NCBI RefSeq assembly: GCF_964194155.1
Contig: NC_135901.1
Span: 25,110,001 to 25,174,000 of the forward strand
Reading direction: 5' to 3'
Length of the DNA stretch: 64,000 nucleotides
Source: Cetorhinus maximus
Taxonomy: Eukaryota
Part shown: one piece after another, positions 3,611 to 62,539 of the stretch
Layout of the letters: each line of letters starts with the position of its first letter
Numbering within the stretch: the stretch's first letter is position 1
The notes under the pieces: generated by a model
Seen by the model: only the letters and a program-made list of their open reading frames with translations
Told to the model about the DNA's origin: nothing
Databases searched by the model: none
Translations under genes and position numbers: made by a program

Positions 3611-4683
3611 TTTTTTAAAAATTCATTCATGGGATTTGAGCTTCGCTGGCTGGGCCAGCATTTATTGCCCATCGCTAATTGCCCTTGAGAAGGTGGTGGT
3701 GAGCTGCCTTCTTGAACCGCTGCAGTTCCTGTGGTGCAGGTACATCCACAGTGCTGTTAGGGAGGGGGTTCCAGGATTTTGACCCAGCGACAGTGAAGGA
3801 ACGGCCGATATATTTCCAAGTCAGGATGGTGAATGACTTGGGGGGGCATTTCCAGGTGGTGGTGTTCCCATCTATCTGCTGCCCTTGTCCTTCTAGATGG
3901 TAGTGGTCTTAGGTTTAGAAGGTGCTGTCAAAGGAGTCTTGGTAAATACCTGCAGTGCATCTTGTAGATGGTACACACTGCAGCGACTGTGCATCGATGG
4001 TGGAGGGAGTGAATGTTTGTGGATGGGTTGCCAATCAAGCGGGCTGCTTTGTCCTGGACAGTGTCCAGCTTCTTGAGTGTTGAGGGAGCTGCACTCATCC
4101 AGGCAAGTGGGGAGTATTCCATCAGACTCCTGACTTGTGCCTTGTAGATGGTGGACAGGCTTTGGAGAGTCAGGGGGTGGGTTACTCATCGCAGGATTCC
4201 TAGCCTTTGACCTGCTTTGTAGCCACGGTATTTATATGGCTCCTCCAGGTCTTAGTAAGGAGGACTTAGGGTCGACGGGGCTGAGATTGCTGTTGTCGTT
4301 TCCGATGCCTATGTCAATGCCGGATGGCCCATCCAGTTTCGTTCCTTTGTCGAGACTTTGTAGTGGTTTTGAGTGGCAGCTCGGCCATTTCAGAGGGCAG
4401 TTAGGAATCAACCACATTGCTGTGGGTCTGGGGTCACATGTAGGCCAGACCAGGTAAGGATGACAGATTTCCCTCCCTAAAGGGGCATTAGTGAACCAGA
4501 TGGGTTTTTACAACAATCGACAATGGTTTCATGGTTATCGTAGGACTTTTAATTCCAGATTTTTAATAAATTCAAATTCCACCATCTGAATCCACTACCA
4601 TTCGAACCCGGGTCCCCAGAGCATTACCCTGGGTCTCTGGATGATTAGTCAGGCGACAATACCACTATGCCATCGCCTGCCCT
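3611..4683 (-). mobile_element. Internally deleted copy of the tRNA-headed CR1-group LINE (see 49766-53002)
   Basis: A box TGGCATAGTGG (4672-4662), B-box-like GGTTCGAA (4608-4601), SINE core, start of endonuclease ORF, then a jump at about 4245 to the RT C-terminus (MEYSPLAWMSAAPSTLKKLDTVQDKAARLI) and the 3' tail. Confidence 0.85.
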
Positions 4684-9280: not shown

Positions 9281-10747
9281 ATGGCCACGGGGGAGGTGCC
9301 AGGGGACTGGAGAACAGCTAATGTGGTTCCGCTATTTAATAAGGGTTGTAGAGATAAGCCAGGGAACTATAGGCTAGTGAATCTCACGTCAGTGGTAGGG
9401 AAACTATTGGAGAAAGTTCCGGAGGAGAGTGCCTATCTCCACGTAAAGAGGCAAGGTTTGATCAGGGATAGTCAGCATGGCTTTGTCAGAGGGAGGTCAT
9501 GCCTAACAAATTTGATTGAATTTTTTGAGGAGGTGACCAGGTGTTTAGATGAGGGTAGTGCGGTTGATGTAGTTCATATGGATTTCAGCAAAGCTTTTGA
9601 CAAGGTCCCACATGGGAGACTTATAAAGAAGGCAAATGTACATGGGATACAGGGTAATTTGATAAGGTGGATTCAAAATTGGCTTAGTTGTAGGAGACAG
9701 AAGGTGATGACAGAAGGCTGCTTTAGTGACTGGAAGCCAGTGTCCACAGGGATCTGTGCTGGGTCCCCTATGAGTCGTCATTTATATAAATGACATCGAT
9801 GACTATGTGGGGGGTAGGATTACTAAGTTTGTGGATAACACAAAGATTGGCCGGGTGGTTAACAGTGAGGTTGAGTGTCTTGGACTACAGGAAGATATAG
9901 AAGATGGTCAAATGGGCAGATAAGTGGCAGATGGAATTTAACCCCAAAAAGTGTGAGGTGATACACTTTGGAAGGAGTAATTTCACAAAGAAGTATTCAA
10001 TGAACGGCATGACACTATGAAGTTCTGAGGAACAAAGAGACCTTGGTGTGTGTGTCCATAGATCTCTGAAGGCACAGGGGCGTGTTAGTTGGGTGGTGAA
10101 AAAAGCACATGGGACGCTTGCCTTTATCAATCGAGGCATAGATTACAAAAGTAGGGAGATCATGTTGGAGTTGTATAGAACCTTGGTGAGGCCACAGCTG
10201 GAGCACTGTGTGCAGTTCTGGTCGCCACATTAAAGGAAGGATGTGATTGCACTGGACGGGGTACAGAAGAGATTCACCAGGATGTTGCCTGGTATGAAAC
10301 ATTTAAGTTATGAAGAGAGGTTGGGTAGACTTGGGTTGTTTTCGTTGGAGCAGAGAAGACTGAGGGGCGACCTGATCGAGTGTACAAGATTATGAGGGGC
10401 ATGGACAGGGTGGATAGGAAGCAGCTGTTCCCCTTAACTGAAGGGTCAGCCACGAGGGGACATAAGGTCAAGGTGAGGGGAAAGGAGGTTTAGGGGGGAT
10501 GTGAGGAAAAACTTTTTTACCCAGAGGGTGGTGACAGTCTGGAATGCACTACCTGGGAGGGTGATGGAGGCGGGTTGCCTCACATCCTTTAAAAAGTACC
10601 TGGATGAGCACTTGGCATGTCATAACATTCAAGGCTATGGGCCAAGTGCTGGTAAATGGGATAAGGTAGGTAGGTCAGGTGTTTCTCACGTGTCGGCGCA
10701 GACTCAATGGGCCAAAGGGCCTCTTCTGCACTGTGTGATTCTGTGAT
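9281..10747 (+). mobile_element. CR1/HER1-type LINE, RT to 3' end
   Basis: ORF 9281..9793 PGDWRTANVVPLF...SQHGF.RGRSCLTNLIEFF...DFSKAFDKVPH; RPQLEHCVQFWSPH; WNALP; tail. Confidence 0.95.
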
Positions 10748-10748
10748 G

Positions 10749-10925
10749 AATCACCAGGATATTCACACTGGGGAAAGGCCATTCGTCTGTTCAATCATAA
10801 GATTGAATTCACTCATTCATCCAATCTCCAGTGGCAGTTCACACTGGGCTGAGGCTGTTCGTCTGCTCCATGTATCAGAAAGGATTCGCTCAGTCATTTA
10901 AACTTCCAACACATCAGCGAGGTGT
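10749..10925 (+). pseudogene. C2H2 zinc-finger remnant (1-2 decayed fingers)
   Basis: [14 protein letters not shown] and GGATTCGCTCAGTCA..CAACACATCAGCGAG motifs. Confidence 0.55.
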
Positions 10926-11364: not shown

Positions 11365-11481
11365 CACAACCAGACCTCACTTCTCCTGGAACAACATTAA
11401 GTGTCCGTTGTTTTCCAGATCCCTTTCTTTCCCCTCACTATGACCCTTAGATTTTTCACAGCTTCCTTGTGTGCATCATCC

Positions 11482-12120
11482 TCCAGAAAATGAACGGGAC
11501 CAGCCATATAAATACTGTGGCGACAAGATCAGGTCAGAGGTTGGGAACTCTGTGCAGAATAGCCCACCTCATGACTCCCCAAAGCCTGTCCATATTCTAC
11601 AAGGCACAAGTCAGGAATGTAATGGAATACTCTCCACTTGCCTGGATGAGTGAAACTCCAAAAACATTCAAGATTTTCCACACCTTCCAGGACAAAGCAG
11701 CCTGCTCGATTAATAGCCCATCCACCACCTTCAACATTCACTCCATCCACAACCGATGCACAATGGCAGCAATGTGTACCATCTACAAGATGCACCACAG
11801 CAACTCACGGAGGCTCCTTTGACAACACCTTCCAAGCCTGTGACCACTACCACCGAGGACAAGGACAGCAGATGCATGGATATACCACCACCTGGAAGTT
11901 GCCCCCCAAGCCACTCACCATCCTGATTTGGAAATATACCACCGTTCCCTCACTGTCATTTGGTCAAAATCCTGGAACTCCCTCCCTAAAAGCACTGTGG
12001 GTGTACCTACACCACATGGACTGCAGCAGTTCAATAAGCTGGTTCACCACCACTTGCTCAAGGGCAATTAGGGATGGGCAATAAATACTTAATGCCCAAA
12101 TCCCATTAATGAATAAAAAA
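11482..12120 (+). mobile_element. 3' fragment of the tRNA-headed CR1-group LINE family
   Basis: YKAQVRNVMEYSPLAWM...CTIYKMH; tail GCAATTAGGGATGGGCAATAAAT. Confidence 0.9.
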
Positions 12121-12319
12121 GTCCAATGTCTCCACTTTAAACACTTCCATTGGTCTTACTAACAGGTAGCAATGGTATTGCTGTTATCACAGGAATCAGT
12201 TCTGAAAAACTGCCACTCTGACGTTAAGGCTTCCTGGAGTAAGATACTGATCCACATCCCTATCCGTGTTCCAGATTTTAAATTGATTATTCAATGTAGT
12301 AAACATATCTAATTTAATT

Positions 12320-12456: not shown

Positions 12457-12844
12457 TATATCTTTTAACCCCTTTACGTCTGATTGTTAATATCTATTAG
12501 CACTGCCAGAGATTGTCTTTGAGATTAGTTGTTTATTTATAATCTGTGGTGTTCTGAAAGTCACCTTTCTCCCTAACCTGTCATAACCCGTCTTGCCGGT
12601 TCATTTATTGAAACCAGGGACTCTCCTTGGTCAAAGGTGACATTCCTTCGCTGCCCAGTTATTGCTTTAAGTCAGCCCTTGAATTGATTGTGCTTTTATC
12701 CTCATGTTACCGCAGTTCACTAACAAATGTTGAACTATTTGCTCCACACCAACAGGGTTCATCTGTTTAAAGTTACAAACAGAAAGGTCCAGTTTTCTCC
12801 TGGAGTTTGAGACAAATCAGCTTTCAAAATGATGCGGCATTTCA

Positions 12845-14578: not shown

Positions 14579-16780
14579 GATAATAGAGGAGGAGGATTTG
14601 CAGTCAGGAAAAGCAAACCAAACCTCACGTCTGACAGGGTCAATCAGTTCATTGGAATCTGAAGGTTCGTACATCTGAAGGGATTTAATTGACTGCCTCA
14701 GCTGGAAACTGGTGAGAGGCTGTTCACCTGCTCCTCCTGTGGGAAGGGATTGATAGAGCTGGTAAACATGCTGACACGACAGTGAACTCGCAATAGCAAG
14801 AGACCGTTCACCTGCTCCGTGTGTGGGAAGAAATTCATGTGTTCATTCAACCTGCTGGCACACCAGCTCGATCACATTGATAAGGATCCTCTTCAATACT
14901 CTGACTCTGAGAAAAGCTTTGAAATCTCTGAGGAACTGATCCAACACCAGCGAGTTCACACTGATGAGAGACCGTTCAGCTGCTCCCACTGCGGGAAGAG
15001 GTTCAGCGAGTCAGTGCATCTAACTGAGCACCAGTGAGTTCACACCAAGGACAAGCCATTCAGCTTCTCCCAGTGTGGGAAGAGATTCGCTCAGTCCTCC
15101 CACAACACTGAGCACCAATTGGTTCACTCAGAAAAGAGACCTTTTAAATGTACTGAATGTGAGAAGACCTTCAAAAGAAGCATTAATTTGCTGAGACACC
15201 AGCACATTCACACTGGGGAGAGGCCATTCCCCTGCTCAGTGTGTGGGAAGAGATTCACTCATTCAGTTCACCTTTTGACACACAAGCGTGTTCACACCGG
15301 GAAGAGGCCTTTCCTCTGCTCTGTGTGTGGGAAGACATTCACTCGATTTTCACACCTTTTGACACACGAGAGTATTCACACTGGAGAGAGGCCGTTCACC
15401 TCCTCTGCGTGTAGGAAGGGATTCATTCAGCCAGCTGACCTGCTGAAGCGCCAGTGGGTGCACACTGGGGAGAGGCCATTCACCTGCTCGGTGTGTGGGA
15501 AGGGATTCACTCGACCCTGCTATCTGCTGAAGCACCAGCGAGTTCACACCGGGGAGAGGCCGTTCCTCTGTTCCATGTGTGGGAAGAGATTTACTTGTTT
15601 ACAACACCTGCTGAGACATCGGACTGTTCACACTGGGGAGAGGGCGTTCACCTGCCCTGTGTGTGGGAAGGGTTTCTCTGAGTCATCCAGCCTCCAGAGA
15701 CACCGATGCACCCACACTGAGGAGAGGCCGTTCACCTGCTCCATTTGTGGCAAGAGATTTGCTCAGTTGTCCTACTACACTGTACACCAACGCGTTCACT
15801 CTGATAAGAGACCTTTTCAATGTTCTGACTACAGGTAGAGCTTTAAAAGAAGCAATAACCTATTGAAACACCAACGCACCCACACTGGGGAGAGGCCTTT
15901 CCTCTGCTCTGTGTGTGGGAAGACATTCACTCGATTTTCACACCTTTTGACACACGAGAGTATTCACACTGGAGAGAGGCCATTCACCTCCTCTGCGTGT
16001 AGGAAGGGATTCATTCAGCCAGCTGACCTGCTGAAGCGCCAGTGGGTGCACACTGGGGAGAGGCCATTCACCTGCTCGGTGTGTGGGAAGGGATTCACTC
16101 GACCCTGCTATCTGCTGAAGCACCAGCGAGTTCACACCGGGGAGAGGCCGTTCCTCTGTTCCATGTGTGGGAAGAGATTTACTTGTTTACAACACCTGCT
16201 GAGACATCGGACTGTTCACACTGGGGAGAGGGCGTTCACCTGCCCTGTGTGTGGGAAGGGTTTCTCTGAGTCATCCAGCCTCCAGAGACACCGATGCACC
16301 CACACTGAGGAGAGGCCGTTCACCTGCTCCATTTGTGGCAAGAGATTTGCTCAGTTGTCCTACTACACTGTACACCAACGCGTTCACTCTGATAAGAGAC
16401 CTTTTCAATGTTCTGACTACAGGTAGAGCTTTAAAAGAAGCAATAACCTATTGAAACACCAACGCACCCACACTGGGGAGAGGCCGTTCCTCTGCTCCGA
16501 GTGTGGGAAGGGATTCGCTCATTCGTCCGGCCTGCTGAGGCACCAACGCACTCACAGCGGGCAGAGGCTGTTCATCTGCTCCGAGTGTGGGAAGGAATTC
16601 ATTGATTCATCCCGCCTGCTGAGACACCAGCGAGTTCACACTGGGGCAAAACCGTTCACCTGCTCTGTGTGTGAGAAGCGATTTACTCAGTCTTACAGCC
16701 TGCTGAAACATAAGCGGCTTCACATGTTACCGACAAAGTTAGAATCGGTTGTTGCTGCTAAGAATCACGTCCAGGACTGA
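14579..16780 (+). pseudogene. C2H2 ZNF (about 20 fingers) broken by in-frame stops
   Basis: Acceptor TTTACAG|G at 14578/14579; ORFs 14819, 15119, 15863 and 16451 with TGERPF linkers; stops at 15035-37, 15836-38 and 16424-26. Confidence 0.85.
15303..16478 (+). repeat. 588-bp (7-finger) near-perfect tandem duplication
   Basis: 15303-15890 matches 15891-16478; one visible difference (G15394 vs A15982). Confidence 0.92.
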
Positions 16781-17928: not shown

Positions 17929-18957
17929 TCAGTTGTGAACTCGCTGGTGTCTCACCAGGTGGGATGACTGAGTGAGTCCCTTCCCACACACAGAGCAGGG
18001 AACGGCCTCTCCCCAGCGTGAATTTGCTGATGTTTCAGAAGATGGTATGACTGAGTGAATCCCTTCCCACATGTGGAGCAAGTGAACGGCCTCTCCCCAG
18101 TGTGAACTCGCTGGTGTGTCATTAGGTCAGATGACTGAGTGAATCCCTTCCCACACTTGGAGCAGGTGAATGGCCTCTCCCCAGTATGAACTCACTGGTG
18201 TATCAGAAGGTGGCATGACTGAGTGAATCCCTTCCCACACCCAGAGCAGGTGAACGGCTTCTCCCCAGTGTGAACTCGTCGGTCTGTCAGAAGGTGAGAT
18301 GACCGAGTGAATCCCTTTCCACACTCGGAGCAGGTGAATGGCCACTCCCCACTGTGAAGTTGCTGGTGTGTTCGCAGATACTTCTTGCTTTTAAAGCTCT
18401 TCTCACAGTCAGAACATTTAAAAAGTCTCTGATCACTGTGTACAAGTTGATGTTCAGTAAGACGGGATGACTGAATGAATCTCTTCCCACAGACAGAACA
18501 AGTGAATGGACTCTTCTCAGTGTGAACTTGCTCATGTGCCAGCAGGTCAGATGAGTAAGCAAATGCCTTCCCGCACACACAACACCTGAACGGTTGTTCC
18601 CCGGTGTGAACTCGCTGGTGTGTCAACATACTGGATAACTGAGTGAATCCCTTCCTGCATAGAGAGCAGGAGAACGGTTTCTCCCCAGTGTGACTGCGTC
18701 AATGAGTTTCCAGCTTTGATGTGGAAATGAATCCCTTCCCACAGTCCCCACATATCCATGGTTTCTCAGCGGTCCTGGTGTCCTCGTGTATCTCCAGGTT
18801 GGACGATCAGTTGAAGCCTCATCCTCACACACCTGTATGGTTTCTTCCTGCTGTGAATGGTGATGTTTTTCAGGCTGTGTAACTGGTTAAAGCTCTTTCC
18901 ACAGCCAGTTCACTGGAACACTCACTTGGGTGTGTGAATGTCTCGGTTCTTTTCCCC
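17929..18957 (-). pseudogene. C2H2 ZNF (about 10 fingers) with a stop and a frameshift
   Basis: ORF 18192..18629 fingers; HQ*VH stop at 18192-94; frameshift near 18000; acceptor TTTTACAG at 18958. Confidence 0.85.
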
Positions 18958-22549: not shown

Positions 22550-22660
22550 GGTCAGAGGCTTGTGTAGGCCCAGACTGGGTGGCAGGTTTCCTTCCCTGAA
22601 GGACATTAGTGAACCTGTTGGATTTTTAGGACAATCCAATACTTTGATGGTCACTTTTTC
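22550..22660 (-). mobile_element. SINE core fragment related to 27917-28259
   Basis: Reverse complement GGTTCACTAATGTCCTTCAGGGAAGGAAACCTGCC...GTCTGGGCCTACAC. Confidence 0.7.
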
Positions 22661-22791
22661 TTGTTTTAAATTCATTTTACAGGATATCGGAAAGGGAGGA
22701 TTTGGAAGCGGGAATCTCAAACCAAGCATCAGATCAATGCCTGACAGAGACACTCAAATCATCAGGACCTGAATACCATTGGATTTTAAAC

Positions 22792-23742
22792 ATGGAAGGA
22801 AAAAGCACCGTTCATAGTGAGGAGAAACTCTACACATGTTCTGTGTGTGGACGAAGATTCAGCCAATCATCTGGCCTTTCAAAACACAAGTGCAGTCACG
22901 ACCGGGTGAATCGTTGGAAATGTGGGGACTGTGGGAAAGGATTTAATTACCCATCTGAGCTGGAAATTCATCGGCACAGTCACACCGGGGAGAGGCCGTT
23001 CACCTGTCCTGACTGTGGGAAGGGATTCACTTGTTCATCTACCCTGCTGACACACCAGCGAGTTCACACTGGGGAGAGACCATTCACCTGCTGAGTGTGG
23101 GAAGAGATTCACTCGGTCAACCATTCTTCTGCAACATCAGCAAGTTCACACTGGGGAGAGACCTTTTAAATGCCCAGACTGCGGGAAGTATTATAGAAGT
23201 TCTGAGGAATTAATACGCCATCAACATGTTCACACTGACGAGAGACCATTCAGGTGCTCTCACTGTGGGTCAGCGTTCAGGCAATCATCCAAACACACTG
23301 TACATCAGCGTATTCATGCTGGAGAGAGACCGTTCACTTGCTCCGAGTGTGGAAAGGGATTCATTCAGTCATCCCACCTGCTGACACACCATCTAGTTCA
23401 CACTGGGGAGAGGCCATTCATCTGCTCCAAGTGTGGGAAGGGATTCACGTGTTCATCTCACCTGCTGACACACCAGCGCAGTCACATTGGTGAGCGGCCA
23501 TTCACCTGCTCTGAATGTGGGAAGAGATTCACTCAGTCATCTGCCCTGCTGAAACATCAGCGAGTTCACAATGGGGAGAAGTTGTTCACTTGCTCTGAGT
23601 GTGGGAAGGGTTTCACTCAGTCATCCAACCTGCTGACACACTGGCGGGTTCACAATGGGGAGAGGCCATTCACCTGCTCTGAGTGTGAATAGGATTCACT
23701 CAGTCATCCACGCTGCTGAGACACCAGCGAGTTCACAAGTAA
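22792..23742 (+). pseudogene. C2H2 ZNF (MEGKSTVHS subfamily, about 11 fingers), frameshifted after finger 3
   Basis: ATG 22792 [19 protein letters not shown]; frame broken at about 23092 and 23690; acceptor TTTTACAG|G at 22682/22683. Confidence 0.85.
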
Positions 23743-27711: not shown

Positions 27712-28318
27712 TCTGGAACCTCCTCCAGCCCTACGATCCTTCAAGCTCCCTGCGCCCCTCCAATTCTGACCCATTCCCCACACTCCCACCTACTTCAATC
27801 CACCATTGGTGGCTGTGCTTTCAGCTGCCAAGGCCCAGAGCTCTGGATTTCGCTCCCTAAACCTCTCGCCTCTTTAAAATCTATCTCTTTGACCAAGTTT
27901 TTGATCACCTGATCATGCGGAGATGGTGGCGTGGTGGTTAATTCACTGGACTAGTAATCCAGAGACCCAAGCAAATGATCTGGGGTCCCAGGTTCAAATC
28001 CCACCATGGCAGATGGTGGAATAAATCTGGAATTGAAAAGCTAGTGACCATGAATCTATCATCGATTGTTGTCCTTTAGGGAAGGTGATCTACCTCCTTA
28101 CCTGGTCTGGCCTACCTGTCATTTCAGACCCACAGCAATGTGGTTGACTCTTAACTGTCCTCTGAAATGCAAGCTACTATGTTCAAGGGCAATCAGGGAT
28201 GCACAATAAATGCTGGCCCTGCCAGCGATACCCACATCATATGAAGGAATAATAAAAAATCTGAAGCATCTTGGGACATTGTTAAAGGGTCTATATAAAT
28301 GCAACATGATGTTGTTAT
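27712..28318 (+). mobile_element. L2 3' end interrupted by a SINE
   Basis: CCACCATTGGTGGCTGTGCTTTCAGCTGCC..CTCTTTGACCAAG before the SINE; CTTGGGACATT..CTATATAAATGCAA after it. Confidence 0.75.
27917..28259 (+). mobile_element. Full-length tRNA-derived SINE sharing both ends with the LINE at 49766-53002
   Basis: A box TGGCGTGGTGG (27927-37), B box GGTTCAAATCC (27991-28001), core CCTTACCTGGTCTGGCCTAC..CCACAGCAATGTGGTTGACTCTTAACTG, tail CAAGGGCAATCAGGGATG..AATAAATGCTGGCC. Confidence 0.88.
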
Positions 28319-28600: not shown

Positions 28601-29272
28601 TCACTTGTGAATTTGCTGGTGTCTCACAAGGTCGGATAGCTGAATGAATCCCTTCTCACATTCAGAGCAGGTGAATGGCTTCTCCCCAGTGTGAACTCGC
28701 TGGTGTCTCAGCAGGTGGGATGACTGAGCAAAGCTGTTCCTACACACGGAGCAGGTGAACGGCCTCTCCCCAGTGTGAATTCGCTTGTGTACCAGAAGGT
28801 CGGATGGCTGGGCAAATCCCTTTCCACACACGGAGCAAGTGAACGGTCTCTCCCCAGTGTGAACTCGCTCATGTCTCAGAAGGTGGGATGACTGAGTGAA
28901 TCCCTTCCCACATATGTAGCAGGTGAACAGCCTCTCTCCAGTGTGAACTTGCTGGTGTGTCAGAAGGTGTGATGACCGAATGAATCTCTTTCCACACTCA
29001 GAGCAGAGGAATGGCCTCTCCCCAGTGTGAACAAGCTGGTGTGCTACCAGATTCTTCTTGTTTTTAAAGCTCTTCTCACAGTCAGAACATTTAAAAGGTC
29101 TTTTATCACTGTGTACACGTTGGTGGTCAGTGAGGTGGGATGACTGAGTGAAGCTCTTCCCACACACAGTGCAGGTGAATGGTCTCTCTGTAGTGTGACT
29201 GCGTCGATGAGTTTCCAGCTTTGGGTAATTCAATCCCTTCCCACAGTCCCCACATTCCCATAGTTTCTCCAT
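28601..29272 (-). CDS. C2H2 zinc-finger protein, 223 aa, 8 fingers (first with a 2-aa deletion), no KRAB
   Basis: Uninterrupted ORF with TGERPF linkers; Kozak-like ACCATGG; acceptor CTTTTACAG at 29639. Confidence 0.85.
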
Positions 29273-30067
29273 GGTGCCAGAGTCCTTGTGTTTCTCCAGG
29301 TTGGACGATCAGTTGAAGATCAGTCCACACACAGAACATGTGTACGGTTTCTCCCCACTGTGAACGGGGTGATTTTTTTTCAGACTGTGTGACTGCTTAA
29401 AGATCTTCCCACAGTAAGTTCAGTGGAACACTCTCACACGGGTGTGTGTCTGTCTCGGTGCTTTTCCAGTCACACTGATGTTTGAAATCTTTTCCCACAA
29501 ACAGAACAGACAAACATTTCTCTTTCCACATTCGAAAGCTGATGATATTCAGGTCCTGATAAATTGAGCGAGTATCAGATGTTGACGTGACGTGTTTGGT
29601 TTGACTTTCCTGTCTGGAACTCCTCTCCTTCTAATACTCTGTAAAAGGAGTTGACAAAGTTCATCTCTGTAAGTGCAGGACAGAAATTCACAACAATCAA
29701 TTCCAGTTTCTATGGAACATTTTTTCCTCTCTTGTTCCCCCAAAGCTGTAAATCTCCATCCCACACACTCTCCCTGTGCTCAAATCCAAACCCATTGCAT
29801 CACCTCCATCAATTCCTTACTCCACTCCCAGTTTTCTCCCTCCCTTACTCTGGTTGTGTTCAGTTCTTCAGCTCCTGTGGGCAGAATGAGGATAAAATCA
29901 ATGAGTCAATGATTTGCTCTCCTGGTCACTGGGACCCTGAAGCCCTGTCCACTCTCTGTTCTTGCCCCACAAATTACCAGCTTCATTCAGCTGAATTTTA
30001 CAGCCTCCCTTTGTATATTTGTGAATTATCTCTCACTCCCTTTTCTTGCTTTAAACTCATTTCACAG

Positions 30068-32999: not shown

Positions 33000-35850
33000 C
33001 TGTGCAGATGGAATGCATTCCTGGTTACTGAGGGAAGGAAGGGTAAATACTGGGGAGGCAATTAGTCACAAGTTTCCGAAACACCTTCTATATCTGGGTG
33101 AATATAGAGGACTGGAAGACTCTAAATATTACACCCTTGCTCAAAAAGGGCAGATGGATAAACCTGGTAATTAATGCTGGTCAGTTTAACGCTGGTGATG
33201 GAGAAGCTTTTAGAAACAAAAATCCAGGAAAACATTAACACCTACATTACCAAGTATAGACTGAAAAAGGAGAGCCAGCATGGAATTATTAAGGGCAAAT
33301 CATTTTTAACTAACTGGACTGACTTTTTTTGTTTGTGGGTTAACAGTGGGATGAGGAAAGTGCAGTAGATGTTGTGTATTGGGACTTTCAAAATGCAATT
33401 GGTAAAACTGGAGGTCATGGGATAAAGGCAGAAAAGGGTCAGCAGCAGTGAGATACAAAGTTGTATCAGGGTTACAAATGAGAGAGTTGTGGTGAATGAC
33501 TGTTCTTCTTACTGCAGGGAGGTATAAAGTGGCTGTCCACAAGGTTCAGTACTGCTGCTTTTTATGTACATTAAGGCTTGTGATTGGGGGTACAGGGCAC
33601 AATTTTGAAATTTTCAGCTGACAAAACTTGAAAGTGTAGATAAATCAGTGAAGAAAATAAGATTAGATTTTAATAGGACACAGACACAGCTGGGGGAATG
33701 GACAGACTCATGACGGATGACATTCAATGCAGCTAAGTGTGAGGTGATACATTTTGTCAGGAAGAATGAGAAGGCACAATACATACCCACTTCAGGCGAG
33801 ACAGGGGAGACAGGGAAGGAAGTAAAAGAGGAGGGGTTTTGGAAATCAGGCAGAAGGACTTGATATGCTTAAAGAAATTAGCATAGAAAGGGAGGAGGTT
33901 CTATGTGGTCTGACAGGCTTAAAAGTAGATAAATCTCCAGGCCCGGACAAAAGGTATCCCAGGCTGATGAGTGAGGCAAGGTAGGAGATAGCAGGGGCTC
34001 TGGCAATAATTTTCAATACCTCTCTGGCCACAGGAGAGATGCCAGAGGACTGGAAGACAGCCAATGTGTTACCGTTATTCAAGAAGGGAGGAAGGGATAA
34101 ACCAGAGAACTACAGGCCAGTCAGTATAACCTCAGTGCTGGGGAAACTATTGGAAGCAATTCTGAGGGACAGAATTAATCCACACTTGGAGAGGCAGGGA
34201 TTAATCAAGGACAGTCAGCATGGTTTTGTTAAGGGGAGGTCATGTCTGACCAATTTGATCGAATTTTTTGAAGAGGTGACTAGGTGTGTAGATGAGGGCA
34301 ATGCATTTGACGTAGTCAACTTGGACTTCAGCAAGGCAATTGATCAGGTTCCACATGGGAGACTGATAATAAAGGTAAGAGCTCATGGGATCCAAGGCAA
34401 TTTGGCAAATTGGATCCAGAATTGGCTAAGTGGCAGGAAGCAGAGGATGATAGTCGAGGAGTGTTTTTGTGCCTGGATACCAGTGCCAAGTGGAGTTCCA
34501 CAGGGATTGATGTTGGGTCCGTTGCTGCTTGTGGTATATATAAATGATTTAGACTCGAATGTAGGAGGGTTGATCAGTAAGTTCGTGGATGACACGAAAA
34601 TTGGTGGGGTGGTAAATAGTGAGGAGGATAGCCTTAGATTACAGGAGGATATAGACGGGCTGATCAGTGGCAAATGGAATTTAATCCAGATAAGTGTGAG
34701 GTGATGCACTTGGGCAGGACAAACAAGGCATGGGAATACACGGTGAAAGGTAGGATCCTGGGAAGTACTGAGGATCAGAGGGACCTTGGTGTGCATGTCC
34801 ACCAGTCCCTTTAGGTAGCAGGACAGGTAGATAAGTTGGTTAAGAAGGCATATGGGCTACTTGCCTTTATTAACCGAGGCATAGAATATAAGAGCAGGGA
34901 GGTTATGCTGGAACTAGGCCACAGCTAGAGTATTGCGTGCAGTTCTGGAATCCACATTATAGGAAGGATTTGATTGCATTAGAGAGAGTGCAAAGGAGAT
35001 TTACCAGGATGTTGCCTGGGCTGGAGAGTTTTAGTTATGAGGAGAGATTGGATAGACTGGGGTTATTTTCCCTGGAGCAGAGTAGATTGAAGGGGGACAT
35101 GATTGAGGTGTATAAAATTATGAGGGGCATAGTTAGGGTAGACAAGAAGGAACTTTTCCCCTTGGTGAAGGGATCAATAACCATGGGGCATAGATTTAAG
35201 GTAAGGGGCAGGAGGTTTGGAGGGAAAGTGAGGAAGAATTTTTTCACCCAGAGGGTGATGGGAATCTGGAACTCACTGCCTGAAAGGGTAGTAAAGGCAG
35301 AAACCCTCATAACATTTAAGAAATATTTGGATGTGCACTTGTGATGCCATGGCATACAAGGCTATGGGCCTAGTGCTGGGAAATGGGATGAGAATAGTTA
35401 GGTGCTTGTTTGACCGGCGCAGACTCGATGGGCCAAAGGACCTTTTTCTGTGCTGTAGACCTCTATGACTCTATGACATAAGAAATAGGATAATTTTAAG
35501 GGGGTGTTTATGCAGAAATATTTGAAGATGGCAGGACAGGTTAAGAAAGCAGCTAATAAAGCGTATGCAATTCTCAGCTTTATATATGGAGACATTGAGA
35601 AGAAAAGCCAGGAAATTATGCTGAACCGATGTAATTCACTAGTTCAGTACCAGCTGCATTATTGTGTCCTATTCGGAGTGCCACACTTTAGAGAAGATGT
35701 GAAGGCTTTGGAGAGGGTATGAAAGAGACTTACTCAAATGATTGCAGGTTGATGGATCACCACTGGTCTACGGACAGTCTGGAGAAGCTGGTTATGTTCT
35801 CCTCGGAACAAAGATGTCTAAGAAGAGGTTTGAGAGGGGTCTCTTGGACA
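33000..35850 (+). mobile_element. Nested CR1 LINEs: old copy (33000-33780, 35500-35850) and younger copy (33850-35475)
   Basis: ORF 34039..34704 PEDWKTANV..NYRPVS..PQG..LGP..KFVDDTK; ORF 34937..35344; tail CTCTATGACTCTATGA. Confidence 0.92.
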
Positions 35851-36540: not shown

Positions 36541-36598
36541 CTCCACTGAATATGGTTGTGTCCTGGATGTGATTAACAGCAAAATCCATCTCCTGAAG

Positions 36599-37805
<1,207 letters not shown>

Positions 37806-39395: not shown

Positions 39396-39921
39396 CTGAA
39401 GGAGCTGACTCTGGCTGGGTTCAAATCCACAGTCACTGGTTTTTCTCTGATAGTTTATATTCACTGCTTTACAGAATGAAACAGCACAGATGAAAACCAT
39501 TCGGCCCATCATGCCTGTGCTGGTTCTTTTGGAAAATCTATCCAATCAATTCCACAGCCCTACTGGCAGAGACAGAACAATGAATATCTGCTGTAGTAAT
39601 GCAAGGATTAATTGAACATGTTTTCCTCTGTGTGTTTCTCAGACACACTCACCCCTGTGGAAAGATCGATTGCCCAGTGTATTAAGCAGATATTAAGGGT
39701 TCACTGGTTAGTTAAGCACATAGAATACCTGGTCGAGCTTAATTCAATAATTCTACACTCCCCACACATTATAAGTAAAGGGCCAAGTTAAGGGAGTATC
39801 TCCGGTGTGATAGAGCGGGTGAATTTTGGAGTACAGTTGTAAAGCAGTATTAACACTCTAAAATCACAAAATTACCAATTGGTTGGTGTGTTTCAGTATG
39901 AAAGAATCCCAGATGATCCCA

Positions 39922-41277
39922 GGTTATTGGAGAAAATTCTGAAGGAGAGAATCTATCTCCACTTCGAGAGGCAAGTTTTGATCAGGGATAATCAGCATGG
40001 CTTTTTCAGAGGGAGGTCATGCCTAACAAATTTGATTGAATTTTTTGAGGAGGTGACCAGGTGTGTAGATGAGGGTAGTGTAGTTCATGTAGTTTACGTG
40101 GATTTCAGCAAAGCCTTTGACAAGGTCCCACATGGGAGACTTATAAAGAAGGCAAATGCACATGGGATATAGGATAATTTGATAAGGTGGATTCAAAATT
40201 GGCTTAGTTGTAGGAGACAGAATGTGATGACAGAAAGATGTTTTAGTGACTGGAAGCCAGTGTCCAATGGCGTACCACAGGGATCTTTGCTGGGTCCCCT
40301 ATTATTCATCATTTATATAAACGACATAGATGACTATGTGGGAGGTAGGATTAGTAAGTTTGCGGATGACACAAAGATTGGCTGGGTGGTTAACAGTGAG
40401 GTTGATTGTCTTGGGTGACAGGAAGATAGAGACGAGATGGTCAAATGGGCAGATAAGTGGCAGATGGACTTTAACCCTGAAAAGTGTGAGGCGATACACT
40501 TTGGAAGGAGTAATTTGACAAGGAAGTATTCAATGAACGGCATGACACTAGGAAGTTCTGAGGAACAAAGGGACATTGGCGTGTGTGTCCATAGATCTCT
40601 GAAGGCGGAGGGGCATGTTAGTGGGGTGATGAAAAAGGCATATGGGACACTTGCCTTTATCAGTCGAGGCATAGGTTGCAAAAGTAGGGAGGTCATGTTG
40701 GAGTTGTATAGAACCTTGGTAAGGCCACAGCTGGAGTACTGTATGCAGTTCTGGTCGCTACATTATATGAAGGATATGGTTGCACTGGTGGGGATGCAGA
40801 GGAGATTCACCAGGATGTTGCCTGGGATGAAATATTTAAGTTATGAAGAGAGGTTGGATAGACTTGGGTTGTTTTCGTTGGAGCAGAGAAGACTGAGGGG
40901 CGACCTGATCGAGGTGTACAAGATTATGAGGGGCATGGACAGGGTGGATAGGGAGCTGCTGTTCCCCTTAGTTGAAGGGTCAGTCACGAGGGGACACAAG
41001 TTCAAGGTGAGGGGCAGGAGGTTTAGGGGGGATATGAGGAAAATCTTTTTACCCAGAGGGTGGTGACGGTCTGGAATGCACTGCCTGGGAGGGCAGTGGA
41101 GGTGGGTTGCCCCACATCCTTTAAAAAGTACCTGGATGAGCACTTGGCACGTCATAACATTCAAGGCTATGGGCCAAGTGCTGGTAAATGGGATTAGATA
41201 GGTAGGTCAGATGTTTCTCACGTGCCGGTGCAGACTCGATGGGCCGAAGGGCCTCTTCTGCATTGTGTGATTATGTG
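39922..41277 (+). mobile_element. CR1/HER1-type LINE, RT to 3' end (same subfamily as 9281-10747)
   Basis: GVPQGSLLGPLLFIIYINDI..KFADDTK; ORF 40437..41066. Confidence 0.95.
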
Positions 41278-41559
41278 ACGATTGAAGTGAGAGGCCGTGT
41301 CCACTGGACCTGTTGAAGCCACATTACTGTTAAACTCATTGGGGTTTATGTGGACTGTATCAGAATGGTGCTTTGTCTTTGTTTCCCCATGAGACCTGTA
41401 ACATCCTTATGAAATACCCACCACAATATCTAGCCCATAAATCTGAGGTAATTGTGATCACAGCCCTTCAAACCGTTGCAGAGAGAATCTCCAACTATTC
41501 TGAAAGATCTTTTGGTTGTAACTCCCTCAGTGAAAACCAACATCTCTGGCAAAACACAG

Positions 41560-47505: not shown

Positions 47506-48444
47506 TCACTTATGAAGTCGCTCGTGTGTCACTAGACTGCAGGAGCGAGTGAATCCCTTCCCACACACAGAGCAGGTGAACGGTCTCTCTCCAGTGTGAA
47601 CTCGCTGGTGCGCAGAGAGAGCAGATGAACATCTGAACCTTTTTCCACAGTCAGTGCAGCTGAATGGCTTCTCCTCAGTGTGAATTTGCTGGTGTGACTT
47701 AAGGGTGGACGATACAGTGAATCTCTTTCCACACACGGAGCAGGTGAATGGTTTCTCCCCAGTGTGAACTCGCTGGTGTTCAACAAGGGCATATGACTGC
47801 TTGAAACTCTTCCCGCAGGAAGTGCAGCTGAACGGCCTCTCCCCAGTGTGAACTCGCTGATGACTCACCAGACTGGATGACTGAGTAAATCCCTGCCCAC
47901 ACACTGAACAGGTGAACGGCTTCTCCCCAGTGTGAACTCGCTGATGTTCTTCGAGGCTGGATGTATACCTGAACCTCTTTCCACAGGAAGTGCAGCTGAA
48001 TGGCTTCTCCTCAGAGTGAATTCGCTGGTGAGTCACCAGGTTGGATGACTTTGTGAACCCCTTCCCACACATGGAGCAGGTGAACGGTCTCTCCCCAGTG
48101 TGAACTCGCTGATGTTGATTGAGGTCCGATGAAGACCTAAACCTCTTTCCACAGGAAGTGCAGCTGAATGGCCTCTCCTCAGTGTGAATTCTCTGGTGTA
48201 ACATTAGGCAGGTAGGCTGAGTAAATCCCTTGCCACACACGGAACAGGTGAATGGCCTTTCCCCAGTGTGAGTGCGTCGATGGTTTTCCAACCGGGATGG
48301 ATAATTGAAACCTTTACCACAGTCCTCACATTTCCATTGTTTTTCCACGGTGCCGGCCCGGGTGTGACTGCGTCGATGATATTCCAGCCGGGATCTATAA
48401 CTGAATCCTTTACCACAGTCCTCACATTTCCATGGTTTCTCCAT
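47506..48444 (-). CDS. C2H2 zinc-finger protein, 312 aa, 11 intact fingers, no KRAB
   Basis: Uninterrupted ORF with all C2H2 ligands present; acceptor CCTTTTACAG|G at 48797/48796; promoter module at 49240-49620. Confidence 0.92.
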
Positions 48445-49239
48445 GATACCAGTATCCTTTTGTCTCTCCAGGTTGAAGCCTCATCCACACACACAGAACA
48501 CGTGTACAGTTTCTCCCCGCTGTGAATGGTGTGATTAATTTTCAGGCTGTGTAACTTGCTAAAACTCCTTCCACAGTCAGTTAACTGGAACACCCACACT
48601 AGGATGTGTGTTTCTTGGTGCTTTTCCAGTTACACTGATGTTTCAAAACTTCTCCCACAGAAAGAACAGACAAACGTTTCTCCTTCCACGTTCAAAGGCT
48701 GATGATATTCAGGTCCTGATGAACCGAATGACTGTCAGTTCATGACATGAAGTTTGGTTTGAGTTTCCCATCTGTAAATCCTCCCCTAATATTATCCTGT
48801 AAAAGGAGATTACAAAAGTCATCACTTTAAATCCTGGATAGAAATTCAGAACAGACAATTCTAGTTTCGATGGAACATATTTTCCTCTCTTGTTCCCCCA
48901 AAGCTGTAAATCCCCGTCCCACACACTCTCCCTCCTCCCTAGGCTGAAATCCAAACCCATCTCACCATCTCCACCATTTCTTTCCTCCACTCCCAGTTTT
49001 CTCCCTCCCTCTCCTCTGCCTGGGTTCAGTTCTCCAGCTCCTGTCTGCAGACTGACAATAAAATCAATGAGTCTTACTGGGGGTTTGGGGCCTCCAGCGG
49101 TTGTTTCTGAATCCTCCCCGCCCACCTCCCAGGGTTTCCTTCCTTCCCACAGATCAGATTCCTCATTGATTTGAGCCCAAAGTGTAACCTCTTATTTATT
49201 GTCCCCCCTCCCCCATCCTCTGATGTGAACCATCCTCCA

Positions 49240-49765: not shown

Positions 49766-52700
49766 GTACAAAGTAATCCAGAAACCCAGGGTAATGCTCT
49801 GGAGACATGGGCTTGAATCCCGCCATGGCAGATGGTGGAATTTGAATTCAATAGAAATCTGGAATTAAAAGTCCAGTGATGACCATGAAACCATTGTCGA
49901 TTGTTGTAAAAACCCATCTGGTTCACTAATGCCCTTTAGGGAAGGAAATCTGCTGTCCTTACCTGGACTGGCCTACTTGTGACTCCAGACCAACAGCAAT
50001 GTGGTTGACTCTGAAATGCCCCCTGAAATGGCCTAGCCAGCCACTCAGTTGTAACAACCCGCTACAAAGGCACAAAAAAGGAATGAAACCGGACGGACCA
50101 CCCGGCATCGAACTAGGCAACGGAACCGACAATGGCAATAACAGCCCTGTCGACACTGCAAAGTCTTCCTTACTAACATCTGGGGGCTAGTGCTAAAATT
50201 GGGAGAGCTGTCTCACAGATGAGGCAAGCAACAGCCTGACATAGTCATCCTCATACCTTACAGATAATGTCCCAGACTCCACCATCGCCATCCCTGGGTA
50301 TGTCCTGTCCCACCGGCAGGGCAGGCCCAGCAGAGGTGGCAGCACAGTGGTATACAGATGGGACAAAGTTGCCCTGGGAGGTCTCAACATCGACTCCGGA
50401 CCCCATGAAGCCTCATGGCATCAGATCAAACATGGGCAAGGAAACCTCCTGCTGATTACCATGTACCGCCCTCCCACAGCTGATGAATGAGCGCTCCTCC
50501 ATGTTGAACATCACTTGGAGGAAGCACTGATGCTGGCAAGGGCGCAGAAAGTACTCGGGGTGGGGGACTTCAATGTCCATCACCAAGAGTGGCTCGGTAG
50601 CACCAATACTGACCGAGCTGGCCGAGTCAAAAATGACATAGCTGCTAAACTGGGTCTGAAGCAGGTGGTGAGGGAACAAACAAGAGGGAAAAACATACTT
50701 GACCTCATCCTCACCAACCTGCCTGCCACAGATGCATCTGTCCATGACAGTATCGGTAGGAGTGACCACTGCACAGTCGTTGTGGAGATGAAGTCCCACC
50801 TTCACATTGAGGATATCCTCCATCGTATTGTGTGGCAGGACCATCGTGCTAAATGGGATAGATTTCGAACAGATCTAGCAATTTAAGACTGGGCATCCAT
50901 GAGGCACTGTGGACTATCAGCTGCAGCAAAATTGTACTCAAACACAATTTGTAACCTCATGGCCTGGCATATCCCCCACTCTACCATTACCATCAAGCCA
51001 GGAAATCAACCTTGATTCAATGAAGAGTGCAAGGGGGAAGTGCCGGGAGCAAAACCAGGCATACCTAAAAATGAGGTGTCAACCTGGTGAAGCAATAAAA
51101 CAGGACTACTTGCGTGCCAAACAGCACAAGCAGCAAGTGATAGATAGAGCTAAGTGATCCCACAACCAACGGATCAGATCTAAAGTCTGCAGTCCTGCCA
51201 CATCCTGTCGTGAATGGTGGTGGACAATTAAACGACTCACTGGAGGAGGTGGCTCCACAAATATCCCCATCCTCAATGATGGGGGAGCCCAGCACAGCAG
51301 TGCAAAAGATAAGGCTGAAGCATTTGGAACAATCTTCAGCCAGAAGTGCTGAGTGGATGATCCATCTCGGCCTCCTCCGGAGGTTCCCAGCATCACAGAT
51401 GCTAGTCTTCAGCCAATACAATTCACTCCATGTGATATCAAGAAACAGCTGAAGGTACTGGATACTGCAAAGGCTATGGACCCTGACAACATTCCGTCAA
51501 GAGTACTGAAGACTTGTGCTCCAGAACTTGCCACATCTCTAGCCAAACTGTTCCAGTACAGCTACAACACTGGCTTCCACCTGGCCATGTGGAAAATTGC
51601 CCAGGTATGTCCTGTACACAAAAAGCAGGACAAATCCAACCCAGCCAATTACTGCCCCATCAGTCTACTCTCGATCATCAGTAAAGTAATGGAAGGGGTC
51701 ATCAACAGTGCTATCAAGCAGCACTTGCTTAGCAATAACCTGCTCATTGATGCCCAGTTTGGGTTCCGCCAGGGTCACTCAGCTCCTGACCTCATTGCAG
51801 CCTTAGTTCAAACATGGGCATAAGAGCTGAACTCCCAAGGTGAGGTGAGAGTGGCTGCCCTTGACGCCAAGGCAACATTTGACCGAGTGTGGCATTAAGG
51901 GGCCCTAGCAAAACTGGAGTCAATGCGAATCAGGGGGAAAACTCTCCGTTGGTTGGGTCATACCTAGTACAAAGGAAGATGGTTGTGGTTGCTGGAGGTC
52001 AGCCATCTCAGCTCCAGGACATCACTGGAATTTCTCAGGGTAGTGTCCTCGGCCCAAACATCTTCAGCTGCTTCATCAATGACCTTCCTTCCATCATAAG
52101 GTCAGAAGTGGGGATGTTCACTGATGATTGCATAATGTTCAGCACCATTCATGACTCCTCAGATACTGAAGCAGTCCATGTCCAAATTAGCAAGACCTGG
52201 ACAATATCCAGGCTTGGGCAAGCAACATTCGCACCACACAAGTGTCAGGCAATGATCATCTCCAAAAAGAGAGAATCCAACAATCGTCCATTGATGTTCA
52301 ATAGTATTACCATCACTGAATTCCCCACTATCAACATCCTGGGGGTCACTATTGACCAGAAACTGAACTGGACAAGCTGTATAAATACTGTGGTTACAAG
52401 AACAGGTCAGAGGCTAGGAATCGTGCGACGAGTAACTCACCTCCTGACTCCCCAAAGACTGTCCACCAACTGCAAAGCACACGTCAGGAATGTGATGGAA
52501 TACTCCCCACTTACCTGGATGACTGCAGCTCCTACAACACAGAAGAAGCTTGACACCATCCAAGAAAAAGCAGTCCGCTTGATTGGCACCACATCCACAA
52601 ACATTCACTCTCTCCAGCACCGACGCACATTAGCAGCAGTGTGTACCATTTACAAGATGCACTGCAGGAATTCACCAAGGCTCCTTAGACAGCACCTTCC

Positions 52701-53002
52701 AAACCCATGACTACTATCACCTAGAAGGACAAGGGCAGCAGAAAGATGGGAACACCACCACCTGGAAGATCCCCTCCAAGTCACTCACCATCCTGACTTG
52801 GAAATATATCACTGTTCCTTCACTGTCACTGGGTTAATATCCTGGAACTCCCTTCCTAACAGCACTGTGGGTGTACCTACACCACATGAACTGCAGCGGT
52901 TCAAGAAGGCAGCTCACCACCACCTTCTCAAGGACAACTAGGGATGGGCAATAAATGCTGGCCCAGCCAGCGAAGCCTTCATCCAGTGAATGAATAAAAA
53001 TA
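49766..53002 (+). mobile_element. Near full-length single-ORF CR1-group LINE (APE plus RT, decayed) with a tRNA/SINE-derived 5' end
   Basis: TSD AAACAAT (49759-65, 53003-09); APE motifs TNIWGL, PDIVIL, GDFNVH, ILDLILTN, SDH; RT motifs NYCPISLLS, QFGFRQGHS, QGSVLGP, FTDD; SWNSLP; A-rich tail. Confidence 0.92.
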
Positions 53003-55990: not shown

Positions 55991-57375
55991 AACATGTGAA
56001 ATAGGAGCAGAAGTAGGCTATTCAGCCCGTCGATCCTTCATTCAATAAGATCATTACTGATTTGTTTGTGTTTTGAATTCCACATTACCATCTACCCTGA
56101 TAACGTTTGATTCCCTTGCCCAACAAACATTACCTACCTCTGCCTTAAAAATATTCAATGACCCCGCCTCCACTGCCTTCAGAAGCAGAGAGTTCCAAAG
56201 TTGCACAACCCTCTGAGAGAAAAAAATCTCCCCTAAAAGAGAAACCTCTAATTTTACTACATCCACCTTGTCGATGCCATTTAGGATATTATATACTGCA
56301 ATCAAGTCACCCCTCACTCTTCTAAACTCCAATGGAAACAAGTCCAGTCTGTCTAACCTTTCCTCATAAGACAAACCCACTTATTCCAACTAACAATCTA
56401 GTAAATCTTCTCTGAACCACCTCCAACACATTTACGTTCTTCCTTAAATAAGGAGACCAAAACTGCACAAAATATTCGAGATGTGGCCTCACCAATGCCC
56501 TGCATAACGGAAGCATAACATCTTTACTTTAATGCTCTATTCCTCTCGTAATGAAGGACAGTATTCCATTCGCCTTCTTAATTACTTGCTGTAACTGCAT
56601 ACTAACTTTTTGTGACTCATGCACAAGAACATCTAGATCCCTTGAACCTCACAATTCTGCAGCCATTCTCTGTTTAAGTAATACTCTGCTTTTTTATTCT
56701 TCCTGCCAAAATGAACAACTTCAAATTTTCCCAGATTAAACTCCATCTGCCAGTTTTTTGCCCACTCACTCAACCTATCTATATCCACCTGCAACCTCCT
56801 TATGCCCTCTTCACAGCATACTTTTCTATCTATCTTTGTGTCATCTGAACATTTAGCTACCATGCCTTCACTCCCCTCAGCTAAGCCATTGATATAAATT
56901 GTACAAAGATCAGCCCCAGCACAGACCCCTGCAGGACTCCACACATCACATTCTGCCAATCAGAAAAAGACCCATTTATGCATACTCTCTGTATTCTGCC
57001 AGCCAGCCAATCCTTTATCTACCCTGATATGTTAATCCCTACACCAAGAGCTTTTATTTCCCAAAATAACCTTTGATGTGGCACCTTATCAAACGCCTTC
57101 TGGAAATCCAAGCACAGTACATCTACAGGCTCCCCATTATCCACAGTGCATTTAACTCCTTCAAAGAACTCCAATAAATTGGTTAAACATGATTTCCCTT
57201 TCACAAAATCATGCTGACTGTTCGTGATTACCTTGAGTTTCTCTAAGTGGTCAGCTATAACTTCCTTAATGATCGATTCTAACACATCCCCCATGACAGA
57301 TGTCAAGCTAACTGCTGACTGTTTTCTGCCTCCCTCCCTTCTTGAGTAGAGGGGTTATATTTGCTACTTTCCCGT
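55991..57375 (-). mobile_element. CR1 LINE RT to 3' end
   Basis: SQHDFVKGKSCLTNLLEFFE..LDFQKAFDKVPH; KCSDDTK; GLSYEERLDRL. Confidence 0.92.
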
Positions 57376-57477
57376 CAGCAAGTCCTCCCATTCAAATACC
57401 CTATAAAAGGAGTTCACAAAAGTTAGCACAGGATAAAAATTCGGAACAGAATAACTCTAGTTTACTTCCTTTTTAAT

Positions 57478-61418: not shown

Positions 61419-62360
61419 TCACTGGGGTGCAGTGAGTTGTTCTGATCCCCTGAACCCAGTCCCGCTGTTAGAGCACCTGAATGGTGTCTCATCAGTGTGA
61501 ACACGTTGATGGCGCATTAATTCCCCAGAGCCCTTATAGCACTTCCCACAGTCTGGACATTTAAAAGGTCTCTCATCAGTGTGAGCACGTTGATGGGACA
61601 TCAGTTCCCGTGAACTTTTATAGCACTTCCTGCAGTCTGGACATTTAAATGGTCTCTCATTAGTGTGGACACTCTGGTGCTTCAGCAGGGTGGATAACTG
61701 TGTGAATCCCTTCCCACACTCAGAGCAGGTGAACGGCCTCTTCCCAGTGTGAACTCGCTGGTGTGTCAACAGCGCAGATGACTGAGTGAATCCCTTCCCA
61801 CACTCATAGCAGGTGAACGGCCTCTCCCCAGTGTGAGTACGCTGATGCACAATGAGTTCGTCTGATCGCCTGAACCCAGTTCCACAGTGAGAGCACCTAA
61901 ATGGTCTCTCATCAGTGTGAACACGTTGATGGCGCATCAGGTCCAGGGAACTTTTATAGCACTTCCTGCACTCTGGGCATTTAAAAGGTCTCGCCCCAGA
62001 ATGAACTTGCTGGTGTTTCAGCAGGTCGGATGACTGAGCGAATCCTTTTCCACACTGGGAGCAGGTGAATGGCCTCTCCCCAGTGTGAACTCGCTGGTGT
62101 GTCAGCAAGTGGGATAACTGAGTGAATCCCTTCTCACATTCGGGGCAGGTGAATGGCCTCTCCCCAGTGTGAACTCGCTGGTGTTGCAGCAGGTTGGATG
62201 ACCTAGTGAATCCCTTCCCACACTCAGAGCAGGTGAACGGTCTCTCCCCAGTGTGACTGCGCCGATGAGTTTCCAGCTCAGACGGGGATCTGAAACCCCC
62301 GTTACAGTCTCCACATTTCCACGGCTTCTCTTCACTATGAACCGTGCTTTTTCCTTCCAT
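61419..62360 (-). CDS. C2H2 zinc-finger protein (MEGK subfamily), 10 intact fingers, ending at a premature TGA; about 4 further decayed fingers extend to 61071
   Basis: ATG at 62360; open frame to 61419; fingers continue in ORF 61167..61349; acceptor at about 62470. Confidence 0.75.
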
Positions 62361-62539
62361 GTTCAAAATCCGATGATTTTCAGATTATGATAAATTGGGT
62401 GACTCTGTCAGATCTGGATGTGACATCTGGTTGGAATTTCGCGACCGCAAATCTTCCCCATCTGATACCCTGTGTAATTGATTGAAAACAGAAAAAAAGG
62501 AGTGAGAAAGAACTCACATTGCCGAGCTAAACCATTCTC

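Follow-up and report, generated by a model that had tools for sequence, protein, structure and literature searches.

The analyzed window, 64,000 nucleotides of Cetorhinus maximus contig NC_135901.1 (positions 25,110,001 to 25,174,000), carries on its forward strand a LINE copy of the Zenon type at 49773..53002, an insertion of 3.23 kb with several private stops and frameshifts, whose bounds were taken from empty paralogous sites. From its 5' end, this copy contains the 3' part of a tRNA-like head (49773..49830, with an anticodon arm remnant, a second arm, and a B box at 49810-49820), a structured 5' body common to LINE and SINE that matches neither Deu nor Meta nor UCON3 (49831..50054), and a predicted hairpin (50023..50048) whose loop, 7 nt long, resembles an anticodon loop and which contains the ATG at 50028 and a TAG at 50034. 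These are followed by an in-frame TAA that is codon 9 of the dominant subfamily (50052..50054), by a conserved GCT-A in the ORF frame (50061..50064), which is a candidate pairing partner of the loop and lies in the putative start region, and by a frame-constrained Lys/Arg-rich leader measuring 111 nt from the GCT to the TNI motif (50061..50171). The family-level APE-RT frame (codons 10 to 978, 50055..52941) is broken in the window copy; it includes, with approximate limits, the APE endonuclease domain (50157..50790; Pfam PF03372/PF14529 in sister copies) and the reverse transcriptase domain (51590..52354; Pfam PF00078 in sister copies). The 3' tail, also common to LINE and SINE, ends in an A-rich tract (52928..53002). 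The preliminary description had correctly read this order, in which a head common to the SINE at 27917 runs directly into the basic leader, the TNIWGL motif (50172), and the APE and RT domains.

Several details of that description were revised. The window copy does not begin at the start of the head but is 5'-truncated, lacking its first ~35 to 40 nt and thereby the A box. The paralogous flank near 12700 was indeed without the insertion, being empty at 12699..12704 (reverse strand), and so were four of the other paralogous sites retrieved. The supposed target site duplication AAACAAT was spurious because both AAACAAT copies preexist in empty sites: four empty paralogous sites already read AAACAAT-GTAC-AAACAAT, which leaves an overlap of at most 3 nt. 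A scan of the other LINE copies for target site duplications gave only scattered short matches. Two paralogs, L263 and L266, carry the same insertion as window 49773-53002; L263 retains 6 nt of the head that are missing from the window copy, and L266 lost the 5' 1.3 kb.

Three further copies lie in the window: an internally deleted LINE with a complete head including the A box (3611..4683, reverse strand), a 5'-truncated copy of the same Zenon-type LINE (11479..12123, forward strand), and a SINE made of an older-type head, the body, and the LINE tail (27917..28260, forward strand). The first of these had been offered as an independent copy with the same junction, A box, and in-frame ATG. The junction and the A box are present, but the copy is internally deleted at ~4242/4251 and has lost almost all of APE-RT, and its ATG at 4388 is in frame in this copy only and not family-wide. 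At the 3' ends of several copies, among them this one (3611-3622, reverse strand) and L037, L045, L048, and L049, T4-T5 directly precedes the A tail and AATAAA lies ~40 nt upstream, which may reflect a terminator remnant or tail decay. The window also contains a cluster of C2H2 zinc-finger ORFs (15038-16777, 18195-18698, 22648-23689, 28604-29308, 36576-37544, 47509-48480, and 61422-62384), in a segmental duplication of which the same contig has six or more further copies, and CR1-like LINE fragments at 9272-10749, 33853-35456, 39921-41281, and 56141-57376.

Zenon membership and the tRNA-like head

By identity, judged by eye, with the first 400 nt of the consensuses that PMC13343379 assigned to Zenon, the family is the published elasmobranch Zenon (CarCar/ScyCan/RhiTyp/HypSab/SquAca_Zenon-1), which is abundant in sharks and rays. 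It has a single ORF with APE and RT, no ORF1, and a poly-A tail. In the available text of Stuart et al. 2026 (PMC13343379), Zenon is reported from five elasmobranchs; its elements there never have an ORF1, end in poly-A tails, and measure 3.2 to 3.3 kb, like the window family. Over their first 400 nt, the consensuses of white shark, catshark, whale shark, stingray, and dogfish show by eye the same head, ATG-GCC-TAG, and leader. The absence of ORF1, noted in the preliminary description, is therefore real but normal for Zenon and already published; it was inherited from Zenon and not caused by the head. The head is likewise in print but unremarked: the consensuses were printed with it, whereas neither the main text of PMC13343379 nor the preprint contains a match for tRNA, promoter, or polymerase III, and the preprint contains none for start codon. 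As printed in PMC13343379, the starts of the hagfish and coelacanth Zenon elements are not tRNA-like, the coelacanth start being poorly resolved. No head was found by nhmmer at E<1 in 80 loci of invertebrate relatives, and no relatives were found in the viral and prokaryote sequence collections. No published description of a tRNA-headed autonomous LINE was found in the open literature; a precedent may exist in Repbase, Dfam, or subscription journals.

The junction between head and endonuclease, noted at first in two copies, is family-wide and far above chance. In a genome search with 9,344 first-look candidates, it was spanned in 40/40 scored hits, and the exact junction 33-mer in its stop-stop form occurred 535 times in the genome, versus 0 for the reversed control. 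Beyond the window copy, 39 copies from the same genome were collected, most of which reach the 3' tail, and in 15 of them the start falls no more than 6 nt from the head's first base. Since the 1.5-kb upstream flanks of these 15 full-start copies have no adjacent shared DNA, the head is the 5' end of the element and there is no ORF1; a longer element with ORF1 upstream of the head was excluded on the same grounds. Together with the empty sites, the discrete start also bears out the view that head and body were inserted together, as one unit. Site-specific LINE insertion into SINEs was ruled out, because the tail continues the last codons of the ORF and headless truncated copies have the same tail. 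Pieces of the LINE also occur inside annotated shark gene models (proteins P0002, P0008, and P0012-P0019), which are probably annotation artefacts.

The A-box motif was found in 14/15 full-start copies and the B-box pattern in 5/15, the others being deleted or mutated. ARAGORN folded a cloverleaf in 4/49 LINE heads at the default score and in 13/49 under relaxed settings, mostly with anticodon AGT. Among five tRNA types compared, a set that did not include Leu, Ser, or Thr(AGT), the head was closest to tRNA-Thr. The long second arm of the head (positions ~55-80; window 49785-49806) resembles a duplicate of the anticodon arm, and by eye the dogfish consensus and the window family differ in it by two compensatory pair changes.

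Identity of the body with the Deu domain of SacSINE1 was rejected after comparison by eye with the printed Deu alignment (PMC7245038, Fig. S4). Two Deu motifs occur at chance level in the window and are absent from the head, and of the domains that the PMC7245038 supplement prints, the body resembles neither Deu nor Meta nor UCON3. SacSINE1 and the DeuSINEs, as presented in the available parts of PMC5499810 and PMC4824008, provide a tRNA-headed shark SINE similar in length to the window SINE, but in a comparison that covered the printed Deu core of the DeuSINEs, this core was not found in the Zenon body.

Origin of the SINEs

The SINE consists of head and body plus the last ~75 nt of the LINE. 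Most of the 24 SINEs examined have one common breakpoint and the older head type, while in L226 and L234 the head is that of the young LINE and the breakpoints are two different ones; a third SINE like L234 was found. There are thus three different head-tail breakpoints, and the SINE heads match LINE waves of similar type, a pattern that fits deletion from the LINE. Older LINE copies bear older head and tail types. Repeated internal deletion therefore looks like a better fit than capture of an independent SINE, and the original proposal that a retrotransposon captured a SINE as its promoter was not borne out. As part of the proposed mechanism, it is likely that internal deletions repeatedly yield matching SINEs.

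As to origin only, an independent SINE may instead have donated head and body to Zenon, as opposed to Zenon having gained a tRNA head and shed SINEs. The greater divergence of the SINE set over the shared part (9.4%, versus 6.4% for the LINE) speaks for such a donor, which is set against the three breakpoints, the older head and tail types on the older LINE waves, and a body unlike the printed Deu, Meta, and UCON3 domains; we consider a donor SINE improbable, though a sizeable minority possibility. Internal deletion from the LINE remains the preferred reading.

Two published schemes are close to this one. In the available text of PMC6740152, the lepidopteran SIDE Persaeus consists of the 5' and 3' ends of Zenon, was formed by internal deletion, and has arisen more than once; Persaeus has neither tRNA homology nor a Pol III promoter, whereas the shark Zenon LINE is itself headed, so that its deletion product is a SINE. 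The bipartite model (Kojima 2018, PMC5786205), as far as its text is available, derives the body and tail of a SINE from the 5' and 3' ends of a LINE; in that model the head is added after the deletion and the LINE stays a Pol II unit, whereas in shark Zenon the head is on the coding element.

T-run depletion on the coding strand

Vertebrate Pol III terminates at four or more T residues. The sense strand had been proposed as the place to look for such terminators, and no majority T4+ run is present there: in the majority-copy windows of 26 near-full-length copies, TTTT occurred 0 times, versus 23 for AAAA, 11 for GGGG, and 13 for CCCC, and a T5 run was found in 0/26 copies. Runs of T4+ amounted to 0.31/kb in Zenon and 3.28/kb in a CR1 family of the same genome (the family at 39925; 26 copies each), which is equally diverged (6.2%) and has as many T4+ runs as its codons predict. 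A second control LINE from the same genome was left out as too diverged.

When synonymous codons were shuffled, TTT on the coding strand was observed 4 times against 12.5 expected (0 of 2000 shuffles as low) and interrupted T tracts once against 6.6 expected (P=0.004), while A-runs were as expected. TTTT alone (0 versus 2.1 expected) was not significant in this shuffle (P=0.08-0.09); a second null gave P=0.0065 for TTTT but is not clean, since AAA was depleted in it as well. Among 80 metagenome loci, 42 intact homologous ORFs had TTT ratios of at least 0.83, compared with 0.32 in shark Zenon, and each had at least 8 T4 runs. The depletion thus goes beyond codon use, and none of 43 controls (the 42 homologous ORFs and the same-genome CR1) shows it, in a test that rests on essentially one lineage.

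This purging of T-runs from the coding strand supports Pol III transcription of Zenon and is in keeping with an autonomous LINE that has a Pol III head of tRNA type and probably makes a coding Pol III RNA. The earlier suggestion of an autonomous retrotransposon possibly using Pol III for a coding RNA stands in part: it is favored by the sharply defined 5' end, by the retention of both the A box and the B box, and by the purging of T-runs, but the capture of a SINE was not borne out. In the proposed mechanism, TFIIIC and Pol III would likely use the internal boxes to produce an uncapped 3.2-kb RNA, and U-tract terminators would have been purged because Pol III makes this RNA.

A head that is a relic or a Pol II promoter, with a capped RNA and a T-poor strand that is a compositional quirk, would be the conventional reading, as LINEs are normally Pol II units in the available text of PMC5786205; AATAAA is present in the tail, and TT is already low in the family (o/e 0.75). 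Such a reading has to accommodate copies that extend no farther than base 1 of the tRNA-like head, A and B boxes retained in the consensuses of five species although the intervening sequence varies, and a depletion that is specific to T-runs; moreover, a capped RNA would still be without a usable AUG. We judge it quite unlikely and prefer transcription by Pol III. Four lancelet-related homologs (proteins P0006, P0007, P0020, and P0021), on single-ORF contigs of 3.4 to 3.6 kb, have a Phe content of 1.65-1.85%, as low as that of shark Zenon, which limits the T-run argument; they may be other Pol III-headed LINEs.

Reading frame, start of translation, and proposed mechanism

In a survey of the frame in the 26 of 41 copies that were long enough (near full length), the ATG at 50028 was kept in 24, codon 3 was TAG (ATG-GCC-TAG) in 22, and codon 9 was a stop in 20. 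The stop-stop 33-mer had 535 exact copies, versus 8 for an open ATG-GCC-GAG...TAT variant. The stops, which had been ascribed to decay of a frame open from this ATG, are thus features of the family, and in most copies the proposed AUG is not the start. A minor sublineage (L300-L307; 8 exact copies) has a frame open from the upstream ATG.

Downstream of these stops, only two columns, both CGA/TGA CpG sites, close the frame of codons 10 to 978 (969 codons). Shared non-CpG changes in it were 27 synonymous to 26 nonsynonymous, versus 340:1333 for singletons (P=1e-6), and within 30 copies with both TAG and TAA the corresponding ratios were 28:21 and 296:934 (P=2e-6). These comparisons of the copies show that purifying selection acted on the APE-RT frame of the source elements, and since the enrichment for synonymous changes holds even within the TAG+TAA copies, stop-bearing sources made protein. 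It could be argued that most copies are passengers mobilized in trans by a rare lineage that is open (ATG-GCC-GAG) and starts at an ordinary AUG, as the 8 exact open 33-mers and two copies open from the ATG through the leader (L077 and L272) would allow. The selection within TAG+TAA copies, the closure of their frame at only the two CpG columns, and a TAG in the printed consensuses of five species make this very unlikely, and we retain the stop-bearing elements as sources.

The frame has no Met before codon 294, which lies beyond the endonuclease, and none of the usual near-cognate start codons (CTG, GTG, TTG, ACG, or ATH) is among its first 40 open codons. In 37 further copies, a set in which older subfamilies are overrepresented (65-89% identity in the body), the TAG was kept in 25 and CpG-bearing GCTA or decay forms were present in 22. 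A start at the +1 AUG (50083) followed by a frameshift was rejected, as this codon reads ATA in 18/37 older copies. An in-frame 6-nt insertion is common to 6 of the older copies. The Lys-rich linker after the GCT is 21 nt long in 28/37 older copies and strongly divergent in sequence, and a stop is present in frame 0 in 3 of these 28 linkers, in frame +1 in 16, and in frame +2 in 27; the distance from GCT to TNI was 110 nt, not 111 nt, in 10/37, with gaps at scattered positions. A comparable basic leader is present in the homologs. Because codon 9 is a stop and constraint on coding sets in at codon 12 or 13, the start would be confined to about four codons without an AUG, and we infer that it lies in codons 10 to 13. 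In the proposed mechanism, ribosomes would fairly probably be placed internally, just after codon 9. The T-run-purged coding strand and an apparently AUG-less frame under selection are new, and no description of this architecture was found in the open literature.

The preferred device for this placement is a tRNA-mimic pseudoknot. The consensus of anticodon loops is CU-NNN-AA, and the loop of the hairpin, which is well predicted, reads CUAGCAA in most copies, with one change in the window copy. The AGC of the loop could base-pair with a GCU that lies 12 nt downstream in the ORF frame, with 3 to 4 possible base pairs that are conserved; no covariation supporting this pairing was found, and RNAalifold on the decayed copies returned almost no structure and no pseudoknot support. 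By eye, the whale shark consensus (one base fewer before the GCT and three fewer after it) fits a GCU start, but the dogfish consensus, one base out of frame after the GCT, does not.

In dicistrovirus intergenic (type 6) IRESs, a start without AUG lies next to a hairpin with an anticodon-mimic loop, and Zenon is a candidate for a similar arrangement. According to the available text of PMC12221177, translation from type 6 IRESs commonly begins at GCU or ACA and does so with no initiator tRNA; the possible pairing of loop and GCU in Zenon has the geometry of PKI in these IRESs. The AUG-less ORF start, a trait of type 6 IRESs, appears to be shared by Zenon, but no counterparts of their PKII/PKIII or SLIV/SLV were identified in it, and an Rfam scan (E<1) gave no IRES match and nothing relevant. 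The possibility of an IGR-type IRES in non-LTR elements was raised in PMC3894237, as far as its text is available. A PKI-like pairing of loop AGC with the in-frame GCU is offered as the device only tentatively, at well below even chance.

The main rival to the pseudoknot step is stop and restart at AUG-GCC-UAG, in which ribosomes on a Pol III RNA would begin at AUG 50028, terminate at the conserved UAG after a peptide of two codons, and then resume in frame with no further AUG, by restart or by readthrough. AUG-independent restart is known for L1 ORF2, and a CAA after a stop, found here after both stops, is a leaky context. The retention of the ATG (24/26) and of the TAG (22/26, and 25/37 older copies) would be explained, and GAG variants would simply fuse in frame. 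The same AUG, however, lies partly within the predicted stem and behind 11 other majority ATGs, readthrough would need to pass two stops in the dominant subfamily, and noncoding SINEs bear the same motif. We regard stop and restart as unlikely.

Target-primed reverse transcription is established for LINEs, and by this route the Zenon protein would reverse-transcribe its own RNA. R2 retrotransposons, which are single-ORF non-LTR elements translated from uncapped non-Pol II RNA, resemble the Zenon proposed here; they differ from it in cotranscription by Pol I, ribozyme release, site specificity, and a different endonuclease. Judged from comparison of the copies, it is on balance probable that the window holds a decayed copy of a 3.25-kb ORF1-less elasmobranch Zenon that was transcribed by Pol III and translated without an AUG from codons 10 to 13. 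The more far-reaching claim, that an autonomous vertebrate LINE has relied wholly on non-mRNA machinery since before the shark-ray split, with a Pol III RNA and a tRNA-mimic pseudoknot, and as the parent of its own SINEs, is rather unlikely as a whole.

In the usual view, LINEs are Pol II mRNAs and SINEs are noncoding Pol III RNAs, a split that a successful, long-lived Pol III-headed LINE would break. From such a LINE, a new SINE could arise in a single step, through deletion. Zenon makes it testable in one short construct whether vertebrate cells can translate a Pol III RNA of several kilobases, and likewise how ORF2-type proteins start without an AUG, a question posed in the available text of PMC3894237. 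If the pseudoknot reading is true, an IGR-type IRES would be encoded in a vertebrate genome.
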